A stretch of DNA of 64,000 nucleotides from Thermodesulfobacteriota bacterium. Its GTDB lineage: Bacteria > Desulfobacterota > Binatia > Bin18. Location of the stretch: assembly GCA_964291405.2 (NCBI GenBank), contig OZ219926.1, positions 608,001 through 672,000 on the forward strand, written 5' to 3'. Of the stretch, positions 868 to 54,243 are shown piece after piece. Within the stretch, counting starts at the first letter, position 1; the number at the start of each line of letters is the position of its first letter. The notes beneath the pieces were generated by a model. That model was not told where the DNA came from and did no database searches. It was given only the letters and a program-made list of their open reading frames with translations. The translations under genes and the position numbers were made by a program.

Positions 868-1494
868 TTATCCTTGCTTATGGATGAGGACAACTTGTCC
901 CCTCGCACCCGGTATAGACCCACACAGGAAGAGCAGATTTTCATCTGGCTGGACGTCAACTACTTGCAGATTCAGTGCCTTCATCCGATCATTCCCGTAA
1001 TGACCTGCCATTCTCTTCCCTTTGAAAATTTTTCCAGGGTAGGAGCGGTTTCCGATAGCCCCACCATGGCGGAAGTACTCATGCGTTCCATGACTCTTCG
1101 GGAATCCGCCCATGCCGTGTCGTTTCATCACTCCGGCATAGCCCCGACCTTTTGTCCGACCGACAACGTTAACCCGATCTCCAGACTGGAAGACTTGTGC
1201 AACTGTAATTTCACCGCCGACCTCGTAGCCATCGGTGTCATCTATCCGAAACTCGCGGAGGACAGCGAAGGGACCGGCACCAGCCTTCTGAGTATGTCCT
1301 AAAACAGGCTGGGAGACACGTTGTGGTTTTTGACTTCCAAATCCCAGTTGGAGCGCAGTGTAACCATCTCTCTGCTGAGTTTTCTTTTGCACAACGGTAC
1401 ATGGTCCAGCCTGTATCACCGTAACTGGAACGAGGTCCCCCTCAGCGGAGAAAACCTGAGTCATGCCGAGCTTCTTTCCTATTAACCCTTGCAT
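868..1494 (-). CDS. rplC: 50S ribosomal protein L3
   Basis: GLIGKKLGMTQVF, GKRMAGHYG motifs. Confidence 0.98.
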   Translation of the reverse strand: MQGLIGKKLGMTQVFSAEGDLVPVTVIQAGPCTVVQKKTQQRDGYTALQLGFGSQKPQRVSQPVLGHTQKAGAGPFAVLREFRIDDTDGYEVGGEITVAQVFQSGDRVNVVGRTKGRGYAGVMKRHGMGGFPKSHGTHEYFRHGGAIGNRSYPGKIFKGKRMAGHYGNDRMKALNLQVVDVQPDENLLFLCGSIPGARGQVVLIHKQG

Positions 1495-1508
1495 TGTCTC
1501 CTCTCCCG

Positions 1509-1829
1509 CTACTCCAGCTTGATCTCAACATCGACTCCGGCGGCCAATTCCAGTTTCCCAAGCGCATCAATGGTTTGCTGAGTCGGGTCAAGGATATCAA
1601 GCAAGCGCTTGTGGGTTCGTATCTCAAACTGTTCCCGCGACTTTTTATCAACATGAGGTGAACGGTTCACCGTGAACCGTTCGATCCGCGTCGGGAGCGG
1701 GATAGGGCCAGCGACCCGCCCCCCGGTCCGCCTCACTGTTTCGACAATCTCTCTGACCGATTGATCGAGTACCCGATGGTCATAGGCTTTGAGGCGGATA
1801 CGGATCTTTTCATTCATAATAGTGGTCAT
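1509..1829 (-). CDS. rpsJ: 30S ribosomal protein S10
   Basis: [32 protein letters not shown]; start could be the later ATG at 1817. Confidence 0.98.
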
Positions 1830-1835
1830 AGGACC

Positions 1836-3020
1836 CTACTCCAGAATTTTGGTGACGACCCCGGCCCCTACCGTGCGGCCCCCCTCCCGAATCGCAAACC
1901 GTAACCCCTCATCCATCGCAATCGGCGTCAGTAACGCCACCGTCATCTGCGTGTTGTCCCCCGGCATCACCATCTCCGTCCCCTCTTGTAACGTCACCGA
2001 CCCCGTCACGTCCGTCGTCCGAAAATAAAACTGCGGCCGATACCCATTGAAAAACGGCGTGTGGCGCCCCCCCTCATCCTTCGTCAACACATACACCTCG
2101 GCCTCATACTTCGTGTGCGGCGTGATACTCCCCGGCTTGGCCAACACCTGCCCCCGCTCAATCTCCTCCCGCTTGATCCCCCGTAGTAAACACCCCACGT
2201 TGTCCCCCGCGACCCCTTCGTCTAAGAGCTTGCGGAACATCTCAACACCGGTCACCGTCGTCTTCTGCGTCTCCCGAATCCCGACGATCTCCACCTCTTC
2301 CCCCACTTTGATCCGCCCGCGCTCCACGCGCCCCGTCGCCACCGTCCCGCGTCCCGAAATCGTAAACACGTCTTCGACGGACATTAAAAACTCTTGGTCC
2401 ACATCCCGCGCCGGCTCGGGAATAAAACTGTCCACCGCGGCCATCAACTCCAGTACTTGCGCCTCCCCGTCGGCCTCCCCTTCCAGTGCCCGCAACGCAC
2501 TCCCCCGAATGATCGGTGTGTCATCACCCGGAAAGTCATACTTCGACAGCAACTCCCGCATCTCTAACTCGACTAAGTCCAACAACTCCTCGTCATCCAC
2601 CATGTCCACCTTGTTCATAAACACTACGATCGCGGGGACTCCCACTTGCCGGGCCAGTAAAATATGCTCCCGGGTCTGCGGCATCGGCCCGTCCGAGGCC
2701 GCCACCACCAATATCGCTCCGTCCATCTGCGCCGCCCCGGTGATCATGTTCTTGATATAGTCCGCATGCCCCGGACAATCCACGTGCGCATAGTGCCGCT
2801 GCTCGGTCTCATATTCCACGTGCGCCGTGTTGATCGTGATCCCCCGCTCCTTCTCCTCCGGCGCTTTGTCAATCTCATCAAACGCCACCGCCTCGGCCAT
2901 CGCCCGCTCGGCTAAGACCTTCGTGATCGCTGCCGTCAGCGTCGTCTTCCCATGGTCAATATGCCCAATCGTCCCCACATTCATGTGCGGCTTCGTCCGC
3001 TCAAACCGCTCCTTCGCCAT
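1836..3020 (-). CDS. tuf: Elongation factor Tu (copy 1)
   Basis: [21 protein letters not shown] GTPase motifs; 394 aa. Confidence 0.99.
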
Positions 3021-3044
3021 CGCTCTCCCTTTCTGCGTAATGCG
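1837..3044. repeat. Direct repeat copy A (tuf plus 24 nt upstream), matching 15766..16973
   Basis: Identical proteins and identical shadow ORFs at offset 13929; shared upstream CGCATTACGCAGAAAGGGAGAGCG; stop codons differ (TAG vs TAA). Confidence 0.93.
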
Positions 3045-3155
3045 ATAAAAGTATTCGTACGAACGGAGGGGGCCTGTACGACCCCCTCATCGTTGGAACT
3101 CGTCTTCGGAGAAGCGTATCAGAACCTGGTACGCTTCCTTATTCTGAAGTTCGCA

Positions 3156-3183
3156 ATTCTAAATGCTATTTCAGAAGAGTCAA
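3156..3183 (-). promoter_or_regulatory. Putative sigma70 promoter for tuf-S10 operon
   Basis: TTGACT-N16-TAGAAT on - strand, about 135 nt upstream of the tuf ATG. Confidence 0.55.
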
Positions 3184-3330
3184 CCGCCTACGGCAGTAGA
3201 TATTTAGGACCGTTCCCCTCTACTCTTCCCTCGTCTTTTCTTCAGGTCACACGAGACACCAGGAGTGTTCACATGTAGTCGAAATATGAAAAAGAAATCC
3301 GTTATCCGTCCGATGTCATAGGTAGCTTTA

Positions 3331-3801
3331 TTACCAACGATAATGGGCAAATGCTTTATTCGCTTCCGCCATGCGGTGCGTATCTTCACGTTTCTTCACG
3401 GCACCCCCTCGATTCTGAGACGCCTCAAAGAGTTCGCCGGCCAGCTTCTCTTCCATGCTCTTTTCCGAGCGCTGCCTGGAAGATTGGACAAGCCAGCGCA
3501 TCGCCAGGGAGTTTCGCCGGACTTGGCGTACTTCAACTGGCACCTGGTAGGTCGCACCACCAACTCTACGTGAGCGGACCTCAACAAGCGGTTTGACATT
3601 TTCTAATGCACGCTTAAAAACCTCGAGTGCTCCCTCCCCCGTTCTCTGCTGGATCAGGTCCATTGCGCCGTAGATGATCTTCTCGACTTTTCCCTTTTCT
3701 CCGTCGAGCATCATCATATTGGCGAATTTTGATACACTCATATCGTGGTATTTCGGGTCCGGTAGGATTTCGCGTCGCGCGGCAGGTCCCTTACGTGGCA
3801 T
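3331..3801 (-). CDS. rpsG: 30S ribosomal protein S7
   Basis: MPRKG start, [26 protein letters not shown]. Confidence 0.99.
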
Positions 3802-3816
3802 ACTTTTTCCTCTCGT

Positions 3817-4188
3817 TCACTTGGGCTTCTTTGCGCCATATTTTGAGCGGCCCTGCTTTCGCTCCTGGACACCGATGGAGTCAAGCGTGCCACGGATAAT
3901 ATGATATCGGACGCCGGGTAAATCCTTGACTCGACCGCCACGGATAAGCACAACGGAGTGTTCCTGCAGATTGTGTCCGATTCCGGGGATATACGCTGTC
4001 ACCTCAATACCATTGGTCAGTCGAACACGGGCGACTTTTCTTAAGGCCGAGTTCGGCTTTTTCGGAGTCGTCGTATAGACCCGGGTACACACCCCACGCC
4101 GTTGAGGACAGGATTGCAAAGCTGGAGCGGTCAATTTTCTGCGTTGTTGCACTCTTCCTTTTCGTACGAGTTGCTGAACCGTAGGCAT
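3817..4188 (-). CDS. rpsL: 30S ribosomal protein S12
   Basis: [24 protein letters not shown]. Confidence 0.99.
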
Positions 4189-4275
4189 TCATCCTCCTTG
4201 CGACTCTCGGCCTGCCGTTCTCAAAGAGGGAACGTGTCCTCCAATACATGATGCTGCTGGACACGTTCCCTCTTT

Positions 4276-7200
4276 CTATGCTTCGAGTATTTGGGCAATG
4301 GGCAAAGGTTCTTCTTCCTCGAGCAAAACTTCCGGGCTTCCGGCAGTGAGCTGCGTATAACTCGGGGTACCGGTTCCGGCAGGAATGAGCCGTCCCATGA
4401 TGACATTCTCTTTGAGCCCCAACAGGTGATCAACCTTGCCATTAATAGCCGCTTCCGTTAGCACCTTAGTCGTTTCTTGGAACGAAGCGGCTGAGATGAA
4501 ACTGTCTGTCGAGAGACTCGCTTTTGTAATTCCCATCAGGAGCGATTTCGCTTCTGGGGGGGTTCCTCCATCAGCCAGCACACGTTCTGTCTCTTCTTGG
4601 AAGCGCCACTTCTCGACTTGCTCGCCAACCAAGAAATCAGAATCTCCAACCTCGGTCACGAGCACACGCCGCATCATTTGTCTCACAATCACTTCGATGT
4701 GCTTATCATGGATACGCACCCCCTGGAGGCGGTAGATTTCCTGAATTGCGTCCACCAAGGACTTTGCGAGTTCGCGCTCTCCGAGAACACCAAGGATGTC
4801 ATGCGGATTTGAGGACCCATCCATCAGCGGCTCTCCCGGCCGGACGTAATCGCCTTCTCGTACGCTGATATGTTTTCCCCGAGGAATGAGATACTCCCGC
4901 GCTTCGCCCACTTCAGGGGTAATCAACACCTTCCTTTTTCCTTTGGTATCTTTCCCAAAAGAAACCGTCCCCTCAATTTCGCTGATAACGGCGAACTCTT
5001 TCGGCTTTCGCGCCTCAAAGAGCTCGGCAACCCGAGGCAGCCCACCAGTAATATCTTTCGTTTTGGTAGTTTCTCGTGGGATCTTTGCCAGCACATCCCC
5101 TGCCTCAACCCGTTGGCCCGCGCTCACATTAATATTGGAGCCAACCGGCAGCAGATAGCGGGCGTCCAATCCATTCGACAGCTTCGCCGTTTTACCGCTG
5201 TCATCTTTGATTGATACCCGTGGGCGCATATTTGGATCACGGAATTCGATAATGACCCGTGTAGATAGACCCGTCCGCTCATCTACCTTTTCTTGCATGG
5301 TCCTATCGTCGATATCACCGAATTTTACCTCACCGCTGACCTCAGTCAGGATGGGGACGGTGTAGGGGTCCCATTCCGCGATTAAATCGTTGGTTTTGAC
5401 CTTGGCCCCGTCTTTCTTTTTCAGCTTTGCACCATAGACGATCTGATACCGTTCTCTTTCACGCTCCCGTCCTGGCTCGAGAACCTCAGTCACAGCAACC
5501 TCTCCGTTGCGGTTCATTACAACGAGATTGCCATCCCGGTCGACCACGGTCTTGAGATTGATGTAGCGGAGTACGCCCTCATGCCGAACCGTTAGTGTCG
5601 TCTGCTCGGCCAGCCGGCTGGCCGTCCCACCAATGTGGAACGTCCGCATTGTCAGTTGGGTGCCTGGCTCGCCAATTGACTGCGCAGCAATGATGCCGAC
5701 CGCTTCACCTAAATGTACCATCCGCCCACGGGCAAGGTCCCGGCCGTAGCACCGTGCACATATGCCTCGCCTGGTCGTACAGGTCAGCGCAGACCGTATC
5801 CATACACGCTCAATCCCGGCTTCTTCTATGCGTACGACGCGGTCTTCGTCAATTTCTTCGTTTGCGCGAACAACAACCTCTTGGGTAAAAGGATCACGAA
5901 TATCATCGAGGGCAACACGTCCTAAGACACGCTCCCCAAGGCCTTCTATTATTTCCCCGCCCTCAACCAGTGGAGTCATCTCTATACCATCAATCGTACC
6001 GCAGTCCTCTTCGCTCACGATCGAGTCCTGAGCGACATCAACAAGCCGTCGGGTCAGATAACCAGAATTCGCTGTCTTGAGAGCGGTATCAGCTAACCCC
6101 TTCCGCGCCCCGTGGGTTGAAATAAAGTATTGGAGCACGGAGAGTCCTTCACGGAAGTTAGCCGTAATCGGTGTTTCGATGATTTCCCCCGATGGCTTTG
6201 CCATGAGACCGCGCATACCCGCGAGCTGGCGAATCTGCTGCGCACTGCCGCGCGATCCAGAGTCTGCCATCATATAGATGGGGCTAAACCCGGCTTTGTC
6301 TTCCTGAAGTCCTCTGAACATCTCATTGGCCGCTTCATCGGTGACCGAGGCCCAGGTATCAACAACCTTATTGTGCCGCTCACCGTCTGTAATCAGACCT
6401 TTTGTATATTGGTCCTGAATCTCTTGCAGACTCTTTTGCGCTTGATCCAAGAGATGGCCCTTTTCTTGCGGAATCACCATGTCTTTGATGCCGATTGAAA
6501 TACCGGCCCGCGTGGCATATTCGAAGCCAAGATCTTTCAAACGGTCCGCGAAAATCACGGTGGCCTTGTTGCCTGCTCTCAAAAAGGCAGCATCAATCAA
6601 GGTGCCAAGTTCTTTTTTCTTCATCACTCGGTTGATATCCGAGAAAGGAATCTCCGGCGGTACAATTTCCGCCAGCAAGACCCGACCCACCGTTGTTTCG
6701 ACCCGTTCACCATCCAGGCGCACTGTGATCTTCGCCTGCAAGTCAACCGTGCCCTGGTCGTAGGCAACCCGGACCTCACCCGGACTGCTGAAAACTTTTC
6801 CCTCACCGAGCGCACCGGAGCGCTCACGGGTCGCGTTATACAGTCCAAGGACAACGTCTTGGGTGGGGGCGATGACCGCCTTGCCGTGAGCAGGTGAGAG
6901 AATATTATTGGTTGACATCATCAAGCTACGAGCCTCAACCTGGGCCTCAACCGACAGCGGGACATGCACAGCCATTTGGTCGCCGTCAAAGTCGGCATTA
7001 TAGGCCATACAGACGAGGGGATGCAGTTGAATAGCCTTACCTTCAATCAGGATGGGTTCAAAGGCCTGGATGCCGAGTCGGTGCAAGGTTGGGGCGCGGT
7101 TGAGTAGAACCGGATGTTCCTTGATCACCTCGTCCAGGATATCCCAGACTTCAGGCCGTTCCTTCTCCACCATCTTCTTGGCACTCTTGATCGTGGTCGT

Positions 7201-44733: not shown

Positions 44734-45267
44734 TCAGTTGGCGTCTTCTTTTTCTTCTTTCCTTTGGGGTGGCAGAGTGGGCGTCTCCGGGGGGGTGGCT
44801 GAAACGCTCCTGAGTAAAATATACGGATCGCCACCAATACCCATTCCCCGCGTAATACCCATCGTCCCGTACTGATAGCCGATCAACGTCCCGGTAAACC
44901 AGTACGACTCGCCCTTGAGAGGGATATCTTTCACAAGAGCCCGGTCCGCATAAAACAGGAGTATCCGGTCCATGATACTCGCCTTCATGGAAACGACACC
45001 ATTACCGACAACCAAGGTCGGAAGCATCGTCATCCCATAGTATTCCACGTACTCAACCTCACCCGTCTGCCTATCTCGGATAAAATAGCGTCGTTTGTCT
45101 CGATCAGGGAAACGTCGGAAGCCACCTGTCACCGTGATCTCTTGCCCGACTTTTTGGTTTGCGAAAAAGCGTACAAATGCATCCGCCCACACCTCCGCAC
45201 TGGGGTAGAAGAACACCATTCCAAGGAAGAGAGGGAGCCAAAGCGTCGCCGTGCGACATCCCCTCAT
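44734..45267 (-). CDS. Hypothetical exported protein
   Basis: ATG 45267 behind GAGGAG; signal-peptide-like N-terminus ending AEVWA; beta-rich body. Confidence 0.65.
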   Translation of the reverse strand: MRGCRTATLWLPLFLGMVFFYPSAEVWADAFVRFFANQKVGQEITVTGGFRRFPDRDKRRYFIRDRQTGEVEYVEYYGMTMLPTLVVGNGVVSMKASIMDRILLFYADRALVKDIPLKGESYWFTGTLIGYQYGTMGITRGMGIGGDPYILLRSVSATPPETPTLPPQRKEEKEDAN

Positions 45268-45407
45268 CGTCTTCTCCTCTTGCCAGAAGCTTACCGCCCG
45301 CAGTCTATGTAATTTCCAGACAAAAGAAAAGGATTGCTGCCCTTGCCGCTCTCTTGCCGTCCCGCTCCTTTCAGGCCACAATAAGTGAGGATGTGCAGGA
45401 GGGTGTA

Positions 45408-46004
45408 ATGCGGCGAAACTGGCGTGCAAAACTGACTCCTTTTCAGCAGCGAATCTTTGATCGGAGCACTGCGGTCACAACGATTGAATTTGATCCGACC
45501 TCACAACTTCGAGCAGCGATCAAAGCCCTGCCCGCCGCGCTTGAGGCAGAAGAGCAAGCCCGTGTCGCAGCGCTCTCCCAAACCATTGTCAATCACATCT
45601 GCCGGCAGCTCAGGGTCCGCACGGTCCAGGTCCGCGTACACGGCACCCGTCCTTCAAACCAACAGGGGGAACTCCACGGGCTCTATACGCAATACAGCGG
45701 AGGCAGTAAAAATGATTCGATCCAAGTCTGGATGCGAACGGCAAAACGAAAACAAACCGTTGCGTTCCGAACCTTTCTTAGAACCCTGTTACATGAGGTC
45801 TGCCATCATTTAGACTATACCTACTTCCACTTCCGAGAATCCTATCATACTGAGGGGTTCTTTCAGCGCGAATCCAGCCTCTTTCACCGCTTAATGTCTC
45901 CAACGACACAACCGTCGCAGGCGGCTCAGAAGCCGTCCCAGTCCTTATCCTCTCTGGCACAGGAATTCCTCCCAAGTCAGAGGCAGACTCAGCCGGAACG
46001 CTAG
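45408..46004 (+). CDS. Hypothetical zincin-like metalloprotein (HExxH)
   Basis: ATG 45408 behind AGGAGG; TLLHEVCHH...YHTEGF. Confidence 0.7.
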
Positions 46005-46063
46005 CGACCACTAACCAGAACTCTTGGACATCCGACTCGGCCTCATGTCTTCCTCTTCCTTTG

Positions 46064-46072
46064 TGCTATAGT
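46064..46072 (+). promoter_or_regulatory. Possible extended -10 promoter of asnS
   Basis: TGCTATAGT about 40 nt upstream of the start. Confidence 0.4.
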
Positions 46073-46114
46073 GCTCTTCTAAAAAACGTTCGGCAATCCA
46101 GGAAGGAAATGCCT

Positions 46115-47410
46115 ATGCCTGAGTGGGTTTATGTCAAGGATATTGCCCAATACGAAGGGCAAGAAGTCGAGCTCCGCGGCTGGTTGTACAACAAGCGCTC
46201 CAGCGGAAAGCTGCACTTTCTTCAAGTGCGCGACGGCACCGGCACGATCCAGTGTGTGGTATTCAAGGGTGACGTCTCAGCCGAGGCCTTTGCCTTAGGA
46301 CAGGATCTCACCCAGGAGTCGTCCGTTATTGTCCGGGGCACAGTCCGGGCTGATAGGCGCTCGTCGATTGGCTTCGAACTCGGCGTGAGCGGCGTACACC
46401 TCACCCAGCAGGCCCACGCCTACCCGATTACCCCCAAAGAGCATGGGGTTGCCTTTCTGCTCGACCACCGCCACCTGTGGCTTCGCTCCTCACGCCAGCA
46501 GGCGCTCTTGCGTATTCGCAGTGAAGTCATAAAAGCGTGTCGAGACTACTTCGATACGCATGGTTTTACCCTGCTCGATGCCCCGATCTTCACCCCGGCC
46601 GCCTGTGAAGGAACAACCACCCTTTTCCCGGTCGACTATTTCGATGACACCGTCTATCTCACCCAGAGCGGTCAGCTCTATATGGAAGCCGGCGCCATGG
46701 CGTTCGGCAAAGTCTACTGCTGCGGCCCGACCTTTCGTGCTGAGAAATCCAAAACGCGACGCCATCTGACTGAATTTTGGATGATTGAGCCCGAAGTGGC
46801 CTACTGCGACCTATATGGTGACATGGACTTGGCTGAAGATTTTCTGGAGGCTGTTGTCCAGCGCGTCCTGACCAACCGACAAGCGGAACTCCAGACGCTT
46901 GAGCGTGATATCGCAAAACTCACTCAGGTAAGAAAGCCGTTTCCGCGTATCAGCTACAGCGAGGCTATAGAACGCCTGCAAGCTAAGGGCGTTGATATTC
47001 AATGGGGAGACGACTTTGGCGGGGATGACGAAACCGTTTTATCCGAACAATTCGACCGTCCGGTTATCGTCCATCGCTATCCGATAAACAACAAAGCCTT
47101 CTATATGAAGACCGACCCGCAGGACGCCACCGTTGCCCTCTGCATGGACGTCTTAGCGCCAGAAGGCTATGGCGAGATCATCGGGGGCGGGCAGCGAGAA
47201 GACGACCTCGCCGTCTTACGAGGGAAGCTGGAGGCGCATGACCTGTCTGAAGAAGCCTTCTCTTGGTATCTTGACCTGAGACGCTACGGCTCCGTTCCCC
47301 ATGCAGGTTTTGGCATGGGCATTGAGCGCATGGTCACTTGGTTGTGCGGTCTGCACCACGTCCGAGAATCAATTCCATTTCCCAGAATGTTAGAACGGGT
47401 AACACCCTAA
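46115..47410 (+). CDS. asnS: Asparagine--tRNA ligase
   Basis: OB-fold N-terminus, [41 protein letters not shown]. Confidence 0.96.
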
Positions 47411-47414
47411 CAGA

Positions 47415-48725
47415 TCACTGGAGAGCAGAGGCGGTCTTTGGCGCGGTCTCCGGCACGCGCGGAGCTTGCTCTTCTCGGATTGCTCGCAGCAAGGCAACAT
47501 TGTCCCCATGTCCCGTCCGGTAGGCAGTCACTTTGCCGCGGATAGGTTGGCCTAAGAGGTAGAGGTCGCCAAGCAGGTCAAGAATCTTGTGGCGGACAAG
47601 TTCATCCTCAAAGCGGAGTGGCGGATTGATAATCCCTTGCTCGCCAATTACGAGGCAGTTATTCAGCCGGCCGCCATTGGCAAGACCCATCTCTTCAAGT
47701 GCTTCAATCTCCTTGAGAAAGCCGAAGGTCCGTGCCGGCGCGATCGTCCCACGATAGCTGTCCGCATCACGCTGGACGTAGTGAAACTCCTGTCTGCCAA
47801 CTGGCTCTGGATACTCTAGACAATAGTCGATCTCAAGCTGCTCCGAGGGCTCAATGCGGAGGAACTTACCCGCACTATGGTCACCGACCTGATAGGTCCG
47901 GTCTACGCTCAACGCCTCTATCTCTTCGTCTTGTTCAACGATTCCAGCACTGTCGAGCAACTGACAAAATTCCAGCGCCGATCCATCGAGAATAGGAACC
48001 TCCCCCTGCATTTTAATGAGCAGATTGGTGATGTTATAGCCGTGCAGCGCCGAGAGCAGATGTTCAACCGTTTTCACTCCCGTCCCCTCCCGATACAAGC
48101 TGGTTGCGTAGCCGGTCGATTGAACATACTCGACCGTAGCTGGAATCAGGACGTCTGAGGACAAGGGACCGAAAACAATGCCGCTGCCCGGCGGTAAAGG
48201 GTGTAAAATAATCCCCGTGCGCACCCCCGAGTGAAGCCCCCGACCATGCACGACCACACTCTGGCGAATGGTCCGGGCCGGGATTTTCTGCGTCATGTGT
48301 GCGGCGGGAAAGTCCGTATCAGCCGTAGCGGCGGCTATTTGGGCAGTGGTGGGGTGACTCGGCTCTGTTCCCAGGGCACGGTGGACCGAACGGAGTAAGG
48401 TATCCAGCGAGAAGGGCTTTTCAAGGAAATCGGCGGCTCCGAGTTTTGTGGCGCGGACGGCTGTTTCGATCGTTCCGTGACCGGAAATCACAATAATCGG
48501 CAGTTCAGGCTCCCGAGACTGGAGTTGTTCGAGCAGAGTGATCCCATCGACGTGCGGCATCCAGATGTCGAGGAGAACCAGACACGGTTGCCACGTAGCG
48601 ACCAAGTCAAGAACGTTTTCACCCGAGTCCGCCTCAAACGTACGGAACCCTTCATCTTGCAAAACGCCCCGTAACATCGTCCGGATTTTTTCTTCGTCAT
48701 CCACAATTAAGATCGGCGCTTCCAT
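47415..48725 (-). CDS. lpxC: Fusion: NtrX-type receiver domain + UDP-3-O-acyl-GlcNAc deacetylase LpxC
   Basis: REC: VDDE, LLDIWMP, ISGHG, FLEKP; LpxC: RT.....G.GLHSG, TVEHLLSAL, PILDGSA, APARTFGF, RHKILDLLGDL, GH; one uninterrupted ORF. Confidence 0.93.
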   Translation of the reverse strand: MEAPILIVDDEEKIRTMLRGVLQDEGFRTFEADSGENVLDLVATWQPCLVLLDIWMPHVDGITLLEQLQSREPELPIIVISGHGTIETAVRATKLGAADFLEKPFSLDTLLRSVHRALGTEPSHPTTAQIAAATADTDFPAAHMTQKIPARTIRQSVVVHGRGLHSGVRTGIILHPLPPGSGIVFGPLSSDVLIPATVEYVQSTGYATSLYREGTGVKTVEHLLSALHGYNITNLLIKMQGEVPILDGSALEFCQLLDSAGIVEQDEEIEALSVDRTYQVGDHSAGKFLRIEPSEQLEIDYCLEYPEPVGRQEFHYVQRDADSYRGTIAPARTFGFLKEIEALEEMGLANGGRLNNCLVIGEQGIINPPLRFEDELVRHKILDLLGDLYLLGQPIRGKVTAYRTGHGDNVALLRAIREEQAPRVPETAPKTASALQ

Positions 48726-48742
48726 AGACGTCCCCCCCTGCC

Positions 48743-51022
48743 TCACGCTGCGTCTTCAATGGACGGCGACGAAGGCTTCTCACGCAGCATCTCTGTCTGA
48801 CGAGTACTGCTGCGCACAGGCATCTCAATAATGAACCGGCTGCCTCGTGGCGTATTGTCTCGTACACGGATAAAGGCCTGATGGTCCGCCACCACGGTGG
48901 CAACAATGGCCAGCCCGAGCCCGGTCCCGTCCTTTTTGGTTGAAAAATACGGCTCAAACAACCGCTCCTTTATGTCTGGCGGGATCCCACAGCCATTATC
49001 AGCGACTTCGATACGCGCAATGCCAAGCGAGCGCATATATCGAGTCGTGACTTCGATACGGCCCGGAGGTTCCTCCGGCCCTTCTCGGCAGGCGACAACA
49101 GCATTGTCTAGCAGATTACGCAGGACGCGGCGCATCCCCTCGCGGTCAAGCTCGAACAACGGTAGGGAGTGGTCCGGCATAAAGACAATGTCCAGGTCGC
49201 GGTAGGCTTCGGCGATCAGAACAATTGTCTCCTGCGCCAACGCGTTCAGGTCATGTAGACTATGCTTTCCAGCCGACAGACGGGCAAACGTGGAGAATTC
49301 GTTGACAAGTTTTTTAATCGCGTCGACTTCATGCGCAATGCTCTGCACACACTCGTCAAACACTTCGTTCCCGTCCGTAATCTGGGGACCAAACCGGCGC
49401 TGGAGGCGCTGCGCCGCAAGCTGAATCGGGGTCAGCGGATTTTTTATTTCATGCGCAATCCGACGGGCAACCTCGCGCCAGGCTTCCATACGTTCGACCT
49501 GGACGATCTGCGTTACATCCTCAAAAAAGCATAACACCCCGAGCGCATGACCACGGTCGTCAGGCAGAGAGGTGCCCGTTATTAAGAGGGAGTGGATGTG
49601 TCCATCGCGATCCAGACGGAGCTGTCCTTTCTGTTCTTGACCGGCATCGTTCCCGTTGCCGTTTTGCCCAAGAAGGAGTTCCTGAACGATGCGCTGCACT
49701 TCCTGGAACTCATTTGCGGAGAATATATCCCGATAGTCCTGTCCAATAACGCTATCGGCGTGTAAATCCAGCAATTGCTCCACCGCCCGGTTCAGGGTGG
49801 AGAGCCGGCCATCCCGATCAAACGAGACGACGCCAGCATTGATATTCCCGAGTAAGATCTCCATATAGCGACGCCGGGCCTCCAGTTCCTGGTGACTCTG
49901 CTGGAGGTCGACGGTCATCCGATTGAAGGCGGAAACGAGCGTTCCGATCTCATCCTCACCCTCTCCCTCAATCCGGTGCGCCCAGTGACCCTGAGCGACC
50001 TCCCGGGTGGCGGCCGATAATTGTTGGAGGGGAACGGTAATTTTTTTCGCCAGATAGACACCCACCCAGATCGCCGAGAAGATGACGACCAGGGTGACCA
50101 GGACCATCGTAATCACATAATTGTTTTTGATTGGCTGCTTCAATATCCTGAGCTGGCGATACTCACCCAACGCCTCAACCACCTGCAACCCTTGTCTGAC
50201 GACGTTCACGGGAACCTGGGTGCCGGCTACAACAACACCGGTCAGGTGTTCTCCAACGATGACGGGAACACCTCCGTACACCAACTCGACCTGCTCCAGC
50301 GTCACGATTTGCTGGACCTCTTCGGTTGCAGACCGGACTCGTTCCAAGAGAGTCTCGCTGAGTTGGGGAGCCGCCAGCGCTCCGCTCGTCTCCGGCGCAT
50401 TGGCCACAAGGGTGAGCGCCGCGGAGTACACGACGAGTTGGGTCAGGCCACGTTCGTGCTGCTCGCTGTTCATGCGGGATTGCAACCGCTCGTAGTGCGT
50501 CGGCTCAAGGAGTTCTTGGGCGATAATCGTCTGAGCGATTGCCCGCGCGTGCGCCAGAGTCTCATCAGCAAGACGGGCATAGACACCGTCAACGACCTCA
50601 AGCGAGCTGCTTAACGAGCGCTCAACACGCAGGGCAAACCAATTCTCGATCGATTTCGTCAGAAAACCGACCCCGATAAAGAACAAGAGTACTGCCGGGA
50701 AAAGAGAAATACCTAAAAAAGCGAGGACGAGTCGAGAGCGGAGGTGTGCACCGGGCAGCTTCCGACGGCGCTCGTAAAACAGCTTCAGCAGGTTCCGACC
50801 AACCAGGAAGACCAGCAAAACAAGCAGGATGATATTGAGATTGATCAACAGAATGAAGATAATGTTGCTGATCAGACTTTCGCCGTCGCTGAGTTGTGGC
50901 GAGCGGCTCTGAAGAAAGGCAAACAAAAAGACGCCCAGCGCTGCCGCGATGATGACAACGATCTCCCAGAACTGGCGACGTTTGTGCTCCTCCAAGCGAT
51001 TTTCGTGGACTGGGGCTTCCAT
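48743..51022 (-). CDS. ntrY: NtrY-family membrane sensor histidine kinase (TM-HAMP-PAS-HisKA-HATPase)
   Basis: AWREVARRIAHEIKNPLTPIQL H-box, NLLDNA, DNGCG, FEPYFSTK, GTGLGL; HAMP DEIGTLVSAFNRM. Confidence 0.88.
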   Translation of the reverse strand: MEAPVHENRLEEHKRRQFWEIVVIIAAALGVFLFAFLQSRSPQLSDGESLISNIIFILLINLNIILLVLLVFLVGRNLLKLFYERRRKLPGAHLRSRLVLAFLGISLFPAVLLFFIGVGFLTKSIENWFALRVERSLSSSLEVVDGVYARLADETLAHARAIAQTIIAQELLEPTHYERLQSRMNSEQHERGLTQLVVYSAALTLVANAPETSGALAAPQLSETLLERVRSATEEVQQIVTLEQVELVYGGVPVIVGEHLTGVVVAGTQVPVNVVRQGLQVVEALGEYRQLRILKQPIKNNYVITMVLVTLVVIFSAIWVGVYLAKKITVPLQQLSAATREVAQGHWAHRIEGEGEDEIGTLVSAFNRMTVDLQQSHQELEARRRYMEILLGNINAGVVSFDRDGRLSTLNRAVEQLLDLHADSVIGQDYRDIFSANEFQEVQRIVQELLLGQNGNGNDAGQEQKGQLRLDRDGHIHSLLITGTSLPDDRGHALGVLCFFEDVTQIVQVERMEAWREVARRIAHEIKNPLTPIQLAAQRLQRRFGPQITDGNEVFDECVQSIAHEVDAIKKLVNEFSTFARLSAGKHSLHDLNALAQETIVLIAEAYRDLDIVFMPDHSLPLFELDREGMRRVLRNLLDNAVVACREGPEEPPGRIEVTTRYMRSLGIARIEVADNGCGIPPDIKERLFEPYFSTKKDGTGLGLAIVATVVADHQAFIRVRDNTPRGSRFIIEMPVRSSTRQTEMLREKPSSPSIEDAA

Positions 51023-51113
51023 ACTCCCTCGCCCTGCTCATATCAGCAGCAAAGACAGTGAAGATATACCATCATAATCAGAGTTCCACCATTATCCATT
51101 TGGATCGCTTTCG

Positions 51114-52241
51114 CTAGAACAAATCGCCCTGCTCTTTTTTACCAGGGTGGTCGATATGCAAATGCTGGTAGGCCTTGAGGGTGGCCAACCGCCCCCGTGG
51201 TGTGCGCTGCAAAAACCCCTCCTGCAAGAGATAGGGCTCGTATACGTCTTCGATGGTGCTCTTCTCTTCGCCAATGGCCGCGGCTATGGTCTCGACACCG
51301 ACTGGTCCACCGTTAAACTTCTCGATAATCGTTCGCAGAATCGCCAGGTCCATTTTGTCGAATCCGGCCTCATCTACTTCAACCAGCGTTAGGGCGGCAT
51401 GGGCCACTGCTTGCGTCACAACCGGCTCTTTCTTCACTTGGACATAGTCGCGTACCCGTCGGAGTAAGCGATTGGCAATCCGAGGGGTTCCCCGTGAGCG
51501 ACGCGCGATTTCTGCGGTTCCGCCCGTATCAGTCTCAATCTCAAGAATTGAAGCCGACCGACGAATGATCTGTTCCAACTCGGACACCTGGTAAAAATCC
51601 AGGCGAAAGGTTGACCCAAAACGGTCTCGGAGCGGTGAGGTCAACAGTCCAGCACGGGTGGTGGCACCAACTAGGGTGAAGTGCTTCAGGGGCAGCTTGA
51701 CCGTTCGTGCCGACGGTCCTTGGCCGACAACGAGGTCCAGTTCAAAGTCCTCCATTGCCGGATACAAAAACTCCTCAACCACGTGATTGAGTCGATGGAT
51801 CTCGTCAATGAAGAGCACGTCGCCTTCTTCCAGGTTGGTCAGAATAGCGGCCAAGTCGCCGGGCCGCTCAATTACCGGGCCGGTAGTGGCCCGAATCGTG
51901 ACATCCATTTCACGTGCGATAATATGCGCCAGGGACGTTTTTCCTAATCCGGGTGGACCACAGAAGAGCAGGTGGTCAAGAACGTCAGCCCGTTGCTTGG
52001 CCGCCTCAATGGCGATCGCAAGATTCTGCTTCGTGCCTTCCTGTCCGATATACTCTTCAAGACTGCGCGGGCGGAGCGACCCCCCGAAACGTGGCTCGTC
52101 AGGCCAGTCAGCCCCACCGTCCGACGGAGCGTCCAGCGTCGACAGATGGGGATTCAGCACGTCGCGCCCTAGACTATCCGAATTTTCGTATATTTCTTTT
52201 GGCATGTCTTTCGCGGCACGGCTCATGTACTGAGCCTCCAT
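51114..52241 (-). CDS. ruvB: Holliday junction branch migration ATPase RuvB
   Basis: [35 protein letters not shown]; exact start uncertain. Confidence 0.97.
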
Positions 52242-52810
52242 AACGATTCTCGGATCACATCGGCAATAGTCGTGTGTCCATCCCGAACAACCGCGCGCAC
52301 CATCTTCTCGGCTTGCGCCTGTCGATAGCCCAGATTCACCAGAGCAGAGGTCGCTTCGGTCGAGAGTGGACTGGGCGTTGCCGTCGGAGTTCCATTCTGT
52401 ACTTCACTTGCGCCAACTTTCTCCTGGAGTTCGACAACCAAACGTTCCGCCGTCTTTTTTCCAACGCCTGGAGTCGCAACCAAGCGTGTTACATCACGCG
52501 TATGCAGCGCATTCTCCAGCTCATCAACCGGAATACCCGACAGAATATTTAAGGCCAGGCGCGGGCCGATGCCGCTCACGCCGCGAAGCAGCAGAAAATA
52601 CGACTTCTCCTTTTCTTCCAGAAAGCCGAATAGCTGGAGGGCATCTTCTCGTGCATGGGTATGGATGAGCAAGCTGACCGGCTCCCCGACTCCCGGCAGA
52701 TGATAGAAGGTTTGCAACGACACCAATACCTGATAGCCGACTCCACCAACGTCGACAATGAGCTGCTCAGGGGTCTTTTCGTGAAGCACTCCGTGGAGGC
52801 GCGCAATCAT
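52223..52810 (-). CDS. ruvA: Holliday junction DNA-binding protein RuvA
   Basis: VGGVGY, REDA..LFGF, two HhH motifs ([12 protein letters not shown]), ALVNLGY. Confidence 0.97.
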
Positions 52811-52831
52811 AGAAGTTGCCGTGCGAGCGTG

Positions 52832-53476
52832 TTAATCGTGCTTTTTCTGGTCTGCGGCGAGCATCTGGGCTACCGTCTGTTCCGTAAAGACATCGCGTAG
52901 AGAGCGGGCCTTCCTGCCCCCAGCACGCCGCGGCTGAGCGCCAACTTGGTGGAGCAGATCGGGCAGGCGGGCAGCGCTACAGTGACAAATGGCTGCCGCC
53001 AGCGCATCCGTCGCATCCTGGCTTGACGGAAAGACCCCCGCCTTTCCGTCTGGATGGTGCAGTTGGGAAAAGACCGCTTTTTGGACCTGCATTTTCCCTG
53101 CCCGGCCATATCCGGTCACCGCCGTCTTAATTTCCGTTGGATTATACTCGGCAATCCGTAGACCGGCTTGGGCCGCGGCTAGGAGCACGACGCCCCGCGC
53201 CTCGCCGAGGCGTAGAGCGCTCTGGACGTTATGTGCCACAAAGGCTTTTTCAAGACTCAAGGCATGAGGAGCCCAGCGGTCAATCACCGTCACAAGCTCT
53301 TCGTAGATGAGACGCAGGCGTTCAGGCAGGGAGCGGAAGCCTTTGACAGAGACGACATCTCCGGCACAAAAGGTCAACGTCCGGCGCGTCTTCTCAATGA
53401 CACCCCATCCGGTCCGTAGCGTGCCAGGGTCTATCCCCAACACGCGCAGTGGAGTCTGAGCGTTGCGAGCGTTGAT
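52832..53476 (-). CDS. ruvC: Crossover junction endodeoxyribonuclease RuvC
   Basis: LGIDPG, LGEARG, DATDALAAA; start uncertain (ATC 53476 behind SD, or GTG 53443). Confidence 0.94.
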   Translation of the reverse strand: MNARNAQTPLRVLGIDPGTLRTGWGVIEKTRRTLTFCAGDVVSVKGFRSLPERLRLIYEELVTVIDRWAPHALSLEKAFVAHNVQSALRLGEARGVVLLAAAQAGLRIAEYNPTEIKTAVTGYGRAGKMQVQKAVFSQLHHPDGKAGVFPSSQDATDALAAAICHCSAARLPDLLHQVGAQPRRAGGRKARSLRDVFTEQTVAQMLAADQKKHD

Positions 53477-53490
53477 GGTCTTTCCCTCCC

Positions 53491-54243
53491 TTAGGCCGCA
53501 CTGAGTCGTTCCATCTCCTCTTCAGCAATTTCTACATTCGCGGAAACGGTTTGGACATCGTCAAGCTCCTGGAGGGCATCGAGCAGACGTAGGGTTTGTT
53601 CGGCTTCCTTGCCGGAGAGGCTGACCGTGTTTTGGGGCACCATCGTCGCCTCAACGGACATCGTCCCAATATTGGCATTTTCGAGCGCCTGCCGCACGTC
53701 TTCGAGGGCATCGGGAGCTGTCACAATCTCAAACATATCATCGCCCGTTGTGACATCTTCCGCCCCGGCGTCAAGGGCAATCTCCATGAGTTGATCTTCC
53801 TCAGCCTGGTCTTTTTCTATGGTAATAATGCCCTTGTGGGTGAACATCCACGCAACGGAGTTAGGCTGGCCTAAGCTCCCACCACTTTTGGTGAACAGAT
53901 GACGCACTTCGGAAACTGTCCGATTTTTATTGTCCGTCAGCGTCTGCAGCATAATGGCCGCTCCGCCTGGCGCATGCCCCTCGTAGGTCACCTCTTCATA
54001 GCTGACGCCCTCAAGCTCTCCAGCGCCTTTTTTCACCGCCCGGTCTATAGTATCGCCTGGCATACTGGCCGCCTTTGCCGCGGCTATGGCCGTGCGTAGG
54101 CGTGGATTTGCGGACGGATCGCTCCCGCCCATCCGGGCCGCAATCGAGAGGTCTTTAATCAATTTTGTGAACATCTTGCCCCGACGGGCATCCTTGACTG
54201 CCTTCTTATGCTTAATGGTGCTCCATTTGGAATGGCCGGACAT
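53491..54243 (-). CDS. yebC: YebC/PmpR family protein
   Basis: MSGHSKWSTIKHKK, TDNKNRT, DDVQ; canonical yebC-ruvCAB order. Confidence 0.96.
   Translation of the reverse strand: MSGHSKWSTIKHKKAVKDARRGKMFTKLIKDLSIAARMGGSDPSANPRLRTAIAAAKAASMPGDTIDRAVKKGAGELEGVSYEEVTYEGHAPGGAAIMLQTLTDNKNRTVSEVRHLFTKSGGSLGQPNSVAWMFTHKGIITIEKDQAEEDQLMEIALDAGAEDVTTGDDMFEIVTAPDALEDVRQALENANIGTMSVEATMVPQNTVSLSGKEAEQTLRLLDALQELDDVQTVSANVEIAEEEMERLSAA

Follow-up and report, generated by a model that had tools for sequence, protein, structure and literature searches.

A receiver domain fused to the only LpxC of an uncultured Binatia bacterium suggests direct two-component control of outer-membrane lipid synthesis

Results

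The sole LpxC of a Binatia genome carries a receiver domain

In an uncultured Binatia bacterium, the only LpxC, the enzyme of the committed step to lipid A, is fused to a response-regulator receiver domain (REC) and encoded behind a sensor kinase. This arrangement suggests that a two-component signal directly switches the synthesis of outer-membrane lipid. Judging from the sequence, we consider it reasonably likely that the kinase phosphorylates residue D53 of the receiver and thereby controls LpxC after translation. The phosphotransfer, the effect on catalysis, and the direction of that effect are what we infer, as set out below. The system is compact, comprising two genes, the kinase and the fusion (Table 1). 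Databases label the fused proteins plain LpxC or NtrX, so that their architecture is hidden from view.

Within the window (the entire 64,000-nucleotide stretch of DNA that was analyzed), the list of open reading frames gives a minus-strand frame open over 47415..48746, which would encode 443 aa if started at GTG; the ATG at 48725, a start position shared by the homologues, yields the 436-aa product. The original prediction had described a single 436-aa frame holding a receiver, a linker of roughly 30 residues, and a complete LpxC. This description was borne out by Pfam domains and motifs, and the motifs it named all fall at the residues assigned to them when the protein is aligned; the prediction lacked a strand, and nothing else in it called for correction. 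The linker is disordered at residues 123-142 (AlphaFold2 pLDDT <50), positions 118-149 are unconserved among 49 non-redundant short (REC-LpxC) members, and a Pfam search of the 436-aa protein returned nothing within residues 119-149; the linker is compatible with a simple tether. Residues 423-436 of the C-terminal tail also have pLDDT <50 and lack conservation in the family alignment.

Table 1. Features of the REC-LpxC locus, in window coordinates
Feature	Coordinates	Strand	Details
REC-LpxC gene	47415..48725	-	436 aa plus stop; genome's only LpxC
Receiver (REC) domain, residues 1-118	48372..48725	-	Response_reg; D9/D10, D53, S81, F100, K103
Ala/Thr/Pro-rich linker, residues 119-149	48279..48371	-	Low pLDDT, unconserved, no Pfam match
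LpxC deacetylase domain, residues 150-420	47466..48278	-	E221, H222, T333, H379, K380, D383, D387, H406
C-terminal tail, residues 421-436, and stop codon	47415..47465	-	Unconserved
NtrY-type sensor histidine kinase, 759 aa	48743..51022	-	Pfam, hydropathy
Kinase-fusion spacer, 17 nt	48726..48742	-	G-rich Shine-Dalgarno-like run at 48732-48738
Sigma-70-like promoter match, ruvB-kinase gap	51071..51098	-	9/12 consensus positions, weak evidence

Pfam assigns residues 151-416 to LpxC (PF03331) at 289.3 bits (cut-off 27), and TIGR00325 (lpxC) also matches the protein, at 266.2 bits (cut-off 187.25). LpxC of Aquifex aeolicus aligns to residues 151-420 (E 1.4e-56), and its corresponding residues line up with E221, H222, H379, D383, and H406. 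The catalytic motifs are TVEH (from residue 219; E221, H222), RHKILD (from 378; H379, K380, D383), and RTGHG (from 403; H406), in which we take the His of TVEH and the His and Asp of HKxxD to be the zinc ligands, E221 the catalytic Glu, and H406 the distal His. E221, H222, T333, H379, K380, D383, D387, and H406 each occur in 161-162 of the 162 family members. When the genome, which is 97.5% complete, was searched by profile for a second lpxC, none was present, the fusion being the single LpxC match; other genomes with the fusion likewise have one LpxC (5/5). Two LpxA-type matches and one LpxB match were also found in the genome. On these counts, REC-LpxC qualifies as the cell's putative deacetylase in the Raetz pathway.

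AlphaFold2 models REC-LpxC with a mean pLDDT of 88.1 and a pTM of 0.87, and a 47%-identical member reaches a pTM of 0.90. Compared with solved Aquifex LpxC chains by Foldseek, the LpxC part gives a target-normalized TM of 0.93-0.96 (rmsd 1.5-1.8 Å), while the query-normalized TM from the LpxC part alone is only 0.56-0.60. Taken with the high pTM, the latter values suggest that the receiver and LpxC may be packed in a defined arrangement. A two-chain complex prediction of receiver residues 1-120 with LpxC residues 145-422, run without controls, scored 0.00 and is neutral with regard to docking. Only 11 positions separate fused from free LpxC domains, including K238, C254, and Y389, and they do not suggest an obvious docking surface.

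The fused frame recurs across the phylum

The receiver-LpxC junction is crossed without gaps by contigs assembled from three DNA runs, each of a different study. One contig, of run X4 (10,465 nt), covers 47300-48900 and differs by 11 substitutions but no gaps; contigs of X7 and X2 likewise cross 48275-48370, and neither joints nor indels occur there. The same fused frame is present in 25 other Binatia assemblies, complete chromosomes included, and fused LpxC was found in about 76 of the 301 genomes of the phylum, which excludes a misassembly or a peculiarity of one strain, the alternatives raised with the original prediction. Among the matches listed, both Pfam domains were present in all homologues (120/120), and the best 150 representatives, clustered at 50% identity, give 36 or more clusters of full-length sequences.

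The fusion arose once, as the fused LpxCs form one clade in the LpxC tree. Architectures within the family span REC-AAA+-HTH-LpxC, REC-HTH-LpxC, and REC-LpxC, with REC and LpxC alone always kept; the phospho-acceptor and catalytic residues persist in at least 160 of the 162 members, down to 38% identity. Full REC-AAA+-HTH_8-LpxC proteins exist, REC-HTH_8-LpxC is represented by P0281 and P0285, and REC-AAA+-lid-LpxC, which lacks HTH_8, by P0286. None of the 14 long forms retains the Walker B Asp-Glu pair or GAFTGA, and four of them lack the HTH; a search of eight short forms for an AAA+/HTH remnant yielded none (0/8). In the separate orthologous regulators, Walker A, Walker B, and GAFTGA/GSFTGA were intact in 4/4. 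The transcription-factor modules have decayed in the family, and selection is on REC and LpxC only.

Five changes are needed on the LpxC tree, one of which is forced by well-supported branches, and its early branches are short Binatia forms. The tree does not settle whether the ancestral form was long or short, and the direction from long to short is argued from motif decay. The original prediction had suggested that the fusion may have arisen by in-frame deletion in an ntrY-ntrX-lpxC operon; the existence of REC-AAA+-HTH_8-LpxC proteins and of intermediates supports an origin by deletion from an ntrX-lpxC arrangement. An unfused operon in the order ntrY-ntrX-lpxC was not seen; the unfused relative (G033) has adjacent lpxC, ntrY-like, and ntrX-like genes on one strand, in the order lpxC-ntrY-ntrX. 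Living genomes keep a stepwise record (unfused, fused with decayed AAA+, HTH-only, and receiver-only) of a transcription factor becoming a post-translational regulator of its own target, which is of general interest for the evolution of regulatory circuits.

The receiver is a derivative of an NtrX-like regulator

Response_reg (PF00072) matches residues 5-114 at 108 bits (cut-off 30.2). The receiver motifs are DDEE (from residue 9; D9, D10), LLDIW (from 51; D53, the phospho-acceptor, with its codon at 48567-48569), ISGHG (from 80; S81), and LEKP (from 101; K103). The protein has the full receiver residue set of D9, D10, D53, S81, and K103, each kept in at least 160 of the 162 family members: D9 is found in 161 and D10 in 160, while D53, S/T81, F/Y100, and K103 are found in all 162. 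In a wider set, the acceptor Asp was present in 106 of 107 short forms.

The best NCBIfam model for the receiver is NtrX (NF051870), which matches the receiver part only, at 131.4 bits against a cut-off of 600 bits, the protein lacking AAA+ and HTH. The same model scores 295.6 bits on a long relative (L062) and 500-520 bits on unfused orthologues, all below the 600-bit cut-off. REC-LpxC is a derivative of an NtrX-like regulator and not a member of NtrX. Among solved structures, the receiver is closest to 4d6x, a chain of 148 residues entered as 'Fis family protein', and to 5m7n, a chain of 454 residues entered as 'nitrogen assimilation regulatory protein', both of which we take to be Brucella NtrX. 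These relatives, the top-scoring model, and the DIW and SGHG marks uphold the earlier claim of an NtrX-like receiver. An NtrX profile search found no separate ntrX above cut-off in the genome.

GAFTGA is retained by the unfused orthologues of this phylum, which therefore resemble sigma-54 activators, as alphaproteobacterial NtrX is not known to do. The fused receiver would formerly have been part of an NtrX-like, sigma-54-type response regulator.

The fusion is partnered with an NtrY-type kinase

The kinase consists of four hydrophobic segments followed by HAMP, PAS, HisKA (H524 in HEIKNPL), and HATPase domains, and by hydropathy some 180 residues of loop separate the third hydrophobic segment from the fourth. 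The HAMP, PAS, HisKA, and HATPase matches are all clear, and the NtrY_N match, the only one in the genome, is marginal (23.4 bits against a cut-off of 23.2); together, these five domains constitute an NtrY-type architecture. The ATG of the fusion follows the TGA stop codon of the kinase (48743-48745) at a distance of 18 nt, and from the short spacer with its Shine-Dalgarno-like run we infer that the two genes form an operon. The promoter match upstream of the kinase comes from a consensus-only scan, which found six sites where 2.4 were expected from shuffles. An RNA-library run (X16) gave just two short contigs over the window, 47636-47871 and 48714-48900, which do not by themselves show transcription. 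DUF4390 precedes the kinase in two relatives; a DUF4390 profile search gave no match in this genome, nor any in control genomes.

The kinase is directly upstream of the fusion in all 25 close Binatia loci. Among the fetched loci, the kinase adjoins the fusion in 8 of 28 short forms and in five of nine long forms, with another locus of each kind too short to judge. Of the short-form loci from other classes that could be assessed (27), 19 lack an adjacent kinase, and the pairing in these is drawn from orthology only. Genomes with an unlinked fusion have exactly one full-length kinase orthologue (5/5), which stands without an adjacent regulator in the three assessable loci (3/3). In genomes with free LpxC, the kinase is followed by a separate regulator (5/5), and the receivers of these regulators find the fusion receiver as their best match in this genome (4/4; 119-136 bits versus 80-95 for the runner-up). 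The receiver of the separate sigma-54 regulator in free-LpxC relatives is the orthologue of the fused receiver. That kinase and fusion are partners is shown by the order of the genes, by complementary distribution, and by reciprocal best match, and phosphotransfer between them is predicted.

Very long frames at the fusion in three genomes (G110, G143, and G076) were considered as kinase fusions and rejected, as the kinase lies in another frame.

Proposed control of LpxC and alternative explanations

In the mechanism that we propose, the NtrY-type kinase would sense an extracytoplasmic cue through its loop of about 180 residues and phosphorylate D53 of the receiver, and the phosphorylation state would alter the packing of the receiver against the LpxC domain, or the release of that domain. 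Against such gating by the receiver, LpxC is to our knowledge a monomeric enzyme with no known requirement for a partner domain. Phosphorylation may lower LpxC activity, a guess that is scarcely better than a coin toss and is made by analogy to NtrYX, which represses lpxC in alphaproteobacteria. A more ambitious proposal, which we hold only tentatively and with the balance against it, is that the kinase reads the outer membrane or periplasmic LPS and throttles LpxC. The pair would then be a two-protein closed-loop lipid A homeostat that fills the role of FtsH-LapB-YejM without proteolysis. It would have evolved from a transcriptional circuit in which a kinase acted through a sigma-54 regulator on the lpxC promoter; the regulator would have become fused to its own target and its AAA+ and DNA-binding modules would then have been lost repeatedly.

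The foremost competing explanation, itself improbable, is that the receiver sets the amount of LpxC and not its rate, its phosphorylation state exposing or hiding a degron or recruiting a protease; the fusion would then be the covalent equivalent of FtsH/LapB control in E. coli. Phospho-dependent protease recruitment has precedents in RssB and CpdR, and the receiver residues would be conserved equally if proteolysis were the output. A search of the genome for the LapB zinc ribbon (PF18073) gave no match, which we count in favor of this explanation, the 28-position model being unspecific in that it also matches Gram-positive controls. Set against these points, the C-terminal tail, which carries the degron in E. 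coli LpxC, is unconserved in REC-LpxC, no protease or adaptor gene is linked to the fusion, and the high pTM favors domains packed in a fixed arrangement over a signal that is exposed. Proteolysis is the characterized mode of LpxC control (PMC12444477, PMC6339880).

Somewhat less probable again is that phosphorylation drives receiver dimerization through the alpha4-beta5-alpha5 face and affects LpxC indirectly, by clustering, membrane association, or binding of another pathway enzyme. Many NtrC/NtrX-type receivers dimerize through this face, the receiver is NtrX/NtrC-like, and an ancestral long form would oligomerize via REC and AAA+; LpxC, however, is not known to need an oligomer for catalysis. 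We think it quite unlikely that the receiver is a relic of a fusion that merely tied the expression of LpxC to that of the former regulator. Regulator-target fusions can be neutral, and the AAA+ and HTH parts have decayed here, yet at least 160 of 162 members retain the five positions of receiver phospho-chemistry, whereas within these proteins, at equal divergence, the neighboring modules decay or disappear, and the kinase orthologue is retained in 5/5 unlinked cases, without an adjacent regulator in the three assessable loci.

Signaling in the reverse direction, with LpxC sensing its substrate or product and modulating the receiver as a phosphate sink or as feedback to the kinase, is very unlikely: the enzyme domain could serve as the sensor of a transcription factor in long forms that have an HTH, but short forms have no output besides LpxC, and a sole LpxC that keeps all catalytic residues must be a working enzyme. 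Finally, an artefact of assembly or gene calling that joined two genes is virtually precluded by the gap-free contigs and the recurring frame described above.

Comparison with known systems

Our literature search found no description of LpxC as the output of a receiver or of phospho-control of LpxC, in keeping with the original prediction, which had presented this as a route not known to be described. The balance of LpxC and LPS is understood mainly for enterobacteria, where control is proteolytic, and a 2025 review, in the portion bearing on this question, treats other lineages as largely open.

Two related systems act on transcription. In R. sphaeroides and Caulobacter, NtrYX is a repressor of lpxC transcription and is reported to reduce LPS along with lpxC transcripts (PMC12444477, section 10; PMC7240162). 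The NtrY/NtrX pairs of alphaproteobacteria (R. sphaeroides, Caulobacter, and Brucella) resemble the present system in the NtrY_N-HAMP-PAS-HisKA-HATPase kinase and in the DIW and SGHG marks of the receiver. Their control is transcriptional and indirect, with a large regulon, whereas here a covalent bond links the receiver to LpxC, and neither AAA+ nor a DNA-binding module is left. The D. vulgaris regulator DVU2934, which shares an operon with the kinase DVU2931, has been mapped to one target, lpxC (Rajeev et al. 2011, PMC3333781, in the passages on this regulator). The same passages place lpxC of S. fumaroxidans next to the orthologous operon (PMC3333781), an adjacency that parallels the lpxC-ntrY-ntrX cluster of G033. 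Compared by description, DVU2931/DVU2934 differs in that a DNA-binding regulator acts on the lpxC promoter; its operon also holds an HD-GYP regulator, and none was seen here.

Among systems that act after translation, FtsH-LapB-YejM/PbgA of enterobacteria targets the same committed step and presumably serves the same need to balance LPS with phospholipid, but it is proteolytic and works through a C-terminal degron and membrane adaptors, with no phosphorylation. Phosphorylation releases or activates an enzyme domain in CheB (REC-methylesterase), PleD/WspR (REC-GGDEF), and RpfG (REC-HD-GYP). REC-LpxC is built like these proteins, with a receiver at the N-terminus and an enzyme at the C-terminus on either side of a flexible linker, and probably shares their logic; their outputs are signaling enzymes, whereas that of REC-LpxC is a housekeeping biosynthetic enzyme in its sole, presumably essential copy. 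A single-domain response regulator is reported to activate the phosphoglycosyl transferase that initiates exopolysaccharide synthesis (PMC12802240). As proposed here, a receiver there acts directly, without transcription, on the enzyme at the committed entry to an envelope glycan pathway, but the two proteins are separate, and the pathway and enzyme differ.

LpxC is also found fused in the bifunctional LpxC/FabZ, whose NCBIfam model (NF009667) matches the LpxC part of REC-LpxC at 207.9 bits, below its cut-off of 465. In LpxC/FabZ, the partner is a C-terminal enzyme of the pathway, whereas in REC-LpxC it is an N-terminal signaling domain.

A receiver domain fused to a complete LpxC

The 436-aa product encoded on the minus strand (see the table) gave two Pfam matches, to a receiver (REC) domain over residues 5-114 (108 bits) and to LpxC over residues 151-416 (289 bits), and passed the curated lpxC equivalog TIGR00325 (266 vs 187 bits). 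All motifs that the original prediction named in the two domains were found where it had placed them. The LpxC part could be aligned to Aquifex aeolicus LpxC (E 1.4e-56), and the AlphaFold2 model of the fusion (pLDDT 88.1) superposed on solved Aquifex LpxC with a TM of 0.94-0.96; residues 123-142 and the 14 C-terminal residues were disordered in the model and unconserved across the family. The start codon lies 18 nt past the TGA of the upstream gene, directly behind a seven-G run (48732-48738).

The fusion is real and not an assembly artefact. The stretch 47300-48900 was present in 20 public runs from 14 studies, four of which were compared with the window. A 10,465-nt contig of run X4 covered the entire stretch gap-free and with 11 substitutions, and the linker was bridged by contigs of X4, X7 (48051-48900) and X2 (48204-48519); no joints or indels were reported in the contigs of the four runs over this stretch. 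Judging by their labels (X4-X6, X11-X13 and X15), many of the runs containing this stretch derive from sponges and one from a coral, so that the lineage may live in association with marine invertebrates.

Features of the window locus and of two loci from genomes of the same phylum (L099 = G033:C1:238500-247500; L097 = G199:C232:1-7500)
Sequence	Feature	Position	Strand	Remarks
Window	Fusion open frame	47415..48746	minus	open-frame listing
Window	REC-LpxC gene start (ATG)	48725	minus	436-aa product
Window	Histidine kinase, 759 aa	48743-51022	minus	same strand as fusion, upstream of it; Pfam
Window	281-aa open frame	45159-46004	plus	HEVCHH (HExxH-like) motif
Window	449-aa open frame	46061-47410	plus	convergent with fusion
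Window	Four open frames (375, 195, 203, 250 aa)	51114-54243	minus	375-aa frame at 51114-52241
Window	Weak sigma-70-like match	51071-51098		between 375-aa frame and kinase gene
L099	Free lpxC	1385-2314	plus	
L099	NtrY-type kinase	2636-4882	plus	
L099	Separate NtrX-like sigma-54 regulator	4922-6334	plus	with GAFTGA
L097	Free lpxC	4610-5467	minus	
L097	DUF4390 gene	3719-4303	minus	
L097	NtrY-type kinase	1459-3690	minus	

In this genome (97.5% complete), the only LpxC match was the fusion gene; there were also two LpxA-type matches and one LpxB match, and no regulator scored above the NtrX cut-off; the expectation that neither another lpxC nor an ntrX would be present elsewhere was thus borne out. 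The fused gene was likewise the sole LpxC in five of five further genomes with a fusion. An exception was G199, a sampled genome of the same phylum, which has an additional free LpxC besides its fusion (locus L072), making two.

A widespread and strongly conserved family

Among the matches listed, all 120 close homologues (65-100% identity, 407-449 aa) contained both domains. Their sources name them simply LpxC, under organism labels including Candidatus Binatia, "Deltaproteobacteria bacterium" and Methylomirabilota. Species-representative genomes, mostly titled Candidatus Binatia, held the full-length gene at 25 loci (72-95% identity), with the kinase immediately upstream in 25/25. Three MAG records with kinase and fusion at 72-78% identity to the window locus (L019, L020, L026) are titled "uncultured Enterobacteriaceae bacterium", a label that is probably wrong.

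Of 301 genomes drawn from this GTDB phylum, approximately 76 had a fused LpxC, as a whole-protein match in 38 and as a match of the LpxC part inside open frames of 450-497 aa in 13 and of 554-837 aa in 25. All 37 loci retrieved out of the ~76 had receiver and LpxC in one frame, and the rest of the 301 genomes had free LpxCs (~40% identity). A wider search covered 1.84 billion cluster representatives, and its best 150 matches comprised 21 short and 15 long full-length fusions (the long forms retaining further modules between the two domains), 18 fragments that combine the receiver with a partial LpxC, 7 LpxCs carrying an AAA+ remnant cut at the N-terminus, 79 free LpxCs and 10 other fragments. 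In one protein, P0161 (769 aa; source name propionyl-CoA synthetase), an AMP-binding enzyme domain follows a partial LpxC (profile positions 65-218); this may represent a further LpxC fusion or a chimera created by gene calling.

The family alignment took in 148 short and 14 long forms, 162 members in all, with identities as low as 38%. D53, S/T81, F/Y100 and K103 of the receiver were retained in all 162, D9 in 161 and D10 in 160; in LpxC, E221, H222, H379, K380, D383 and D387 were retained in all 162, and T333 and H406 in 161. The acceptor Asp was also present in 106/107 of a wider short-form set. The receiver's phospho-chemistry is thus as constrained as the active site of the enzyme, whereas decay was tolerated in the modules that lay between receiver and LpxC.

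A probable single origin from a separate regulator

The long forms (P0121-P0125 and the products of L059-L067; 685-788 aa) consist of a receiver, a sigma-54-type AAA+ domain with its lid, in some an HTH_8, and LpxC; the cluster of P0123 includes one member labelled Nitrospinota. Walker A was retained in 14/14; none of the 14 had a GAFTGA loop or the Asp-Glu pair of Walker B, and four lacked the HTH segment. P0281 (491 aa) and P0285 (505 aa), with REC-HTH_8-LpxC and no AAA+, are intermediate between long and short fusions, and P0286 is REC-AAA+-lid-LpxC without HTH_8. No remnant was detected between the receiver and LpxC in the eight short forms tested.

Maximum-likelihood analysis of 84 LpxC-domain rows (19 free and 65 non-redundant fused) gathered all fused LpxCs in one clade (SH-aLRT 100), making a single fusion event likely. 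Long and short forms were interspersed, requiring five changes, only one of them forced by well-supported branches, and this tree gave no answer on their order.

The unfused relatives were informative on that order. In 5/5 free-LpxC genomes, a single full-length kinase orthologue (39-41% identity) was directly followed by a separate 452-470-aa regulator, whose best NCBIfam model was NtrX (500-520 bits, under the cut-off of 600). The lpxC-kinase-regulator cluster of one sampled genome, G033, is an unfused counterpart of the window locus. Walker A, Walker B and GAFTGA/GSFTGA were intact in 4/4 separate regulators, and for 4/4 receivers of such regulators the fusion receiver was the top hit in this genome (48-57% identity, 119-136 bits; runner-up 80-95 bits). 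Since these modules are intact in the unfused orthologues and decayed or missing in the fusions, we argue for an order from separate regulator to long fusion to short fusion.

LpxC as the output of an NtrY-type system

Pfam assigned the adjacent kinase a marginal NtrY_N module (23.4 vs a cut-off of 23.2 bits), the only NtrY_N match in the genome, followed by HAMP, PAS, HisKA and HATPase. Of its four hydrophobic segments, the last two are separated by a loop of ~180 residues; its H-box lies at H524. The kinase did not adjoin the fusion at 19/27 assessable short loci, from other classes, and at 3/8 assessable long loci. Exactly one full-length kinase orthologue was nevertheless found in 5/5 tested genomes with an unlinked fusion, the next-best kinase matches being weaker than E 1e-38. 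The unlinked kinase had no regulator beside it in 3/3 assessable loci, where its neighbours were DUF4390, SmpB, a ParB-like gene and NAD kinase. In free-LpxC genomes a regulator stands beside the kinase; the fused protein thus replaces it. In G199 the free lpxC is followed by the DUF4390 gene and the kinase, so this kinase family is tied to lpxC even when the fusion lies at another locus.

The fusions thus form a genuine and conserved family of single origin, whose sole LpxC serves as output for a two-component system of the NtrY type. Comparative evidence strongly suggests phospho-control of LpxC. Most simply, the kinase would phosphorylate D53 of the receiver and thereby alter LpxC output after translation; control of LpxC stability, oligomeric state or localisation are all live alternatives. 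CheB works through a fixed packing of receiver and enzyme. AlphaFold2 hints at a similar arrangement here, as pTM reached 0.87 for the window fusion and 0.90 for an unlinked member 47% identical to it, while the LpxC domain alone gives a query-normalised TM of only ~0.6.

No description of a receiver-LpxC or NtrX-LpxC protein was found in full-text searches that took in only a minority of subscription journals. The accessible text of a 2025 JBC review on lipid A regulation contains no "fusion", "fused" or "response regulator", and presents NtrYX and ChvGI solely as transcriptional regulators of lpxC (PMC12444477). Lemmer et al. 2020 (PMC7240162) reported that lpxC mRNA was 8.8-fold higher in an ntrYX deletion strain and that the region upstream of lpxC lacks an NtrX binding site; in Rajeev et al. 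2011 (PMC3333781), lpxC was the single target of the D. vulgaris regulator DVU2934.

Genomic neighbourhood

The convergent 449-aa frame, whose translation resembles an asparaginyl-tRNA synthetase by eye, has its end 4 nt away from the fusion stop codon, indicating that the kinase-fusion operon ends there. The 281-aa frame lies where GC skew is strongly negative and other long frames overlap it. Directly upstream of the kinase, the 375-aa frame resembles ruvB by eye, and a yebC-ruvC-ruvA-ruvB-like run is our guess for the four same-strand frames.
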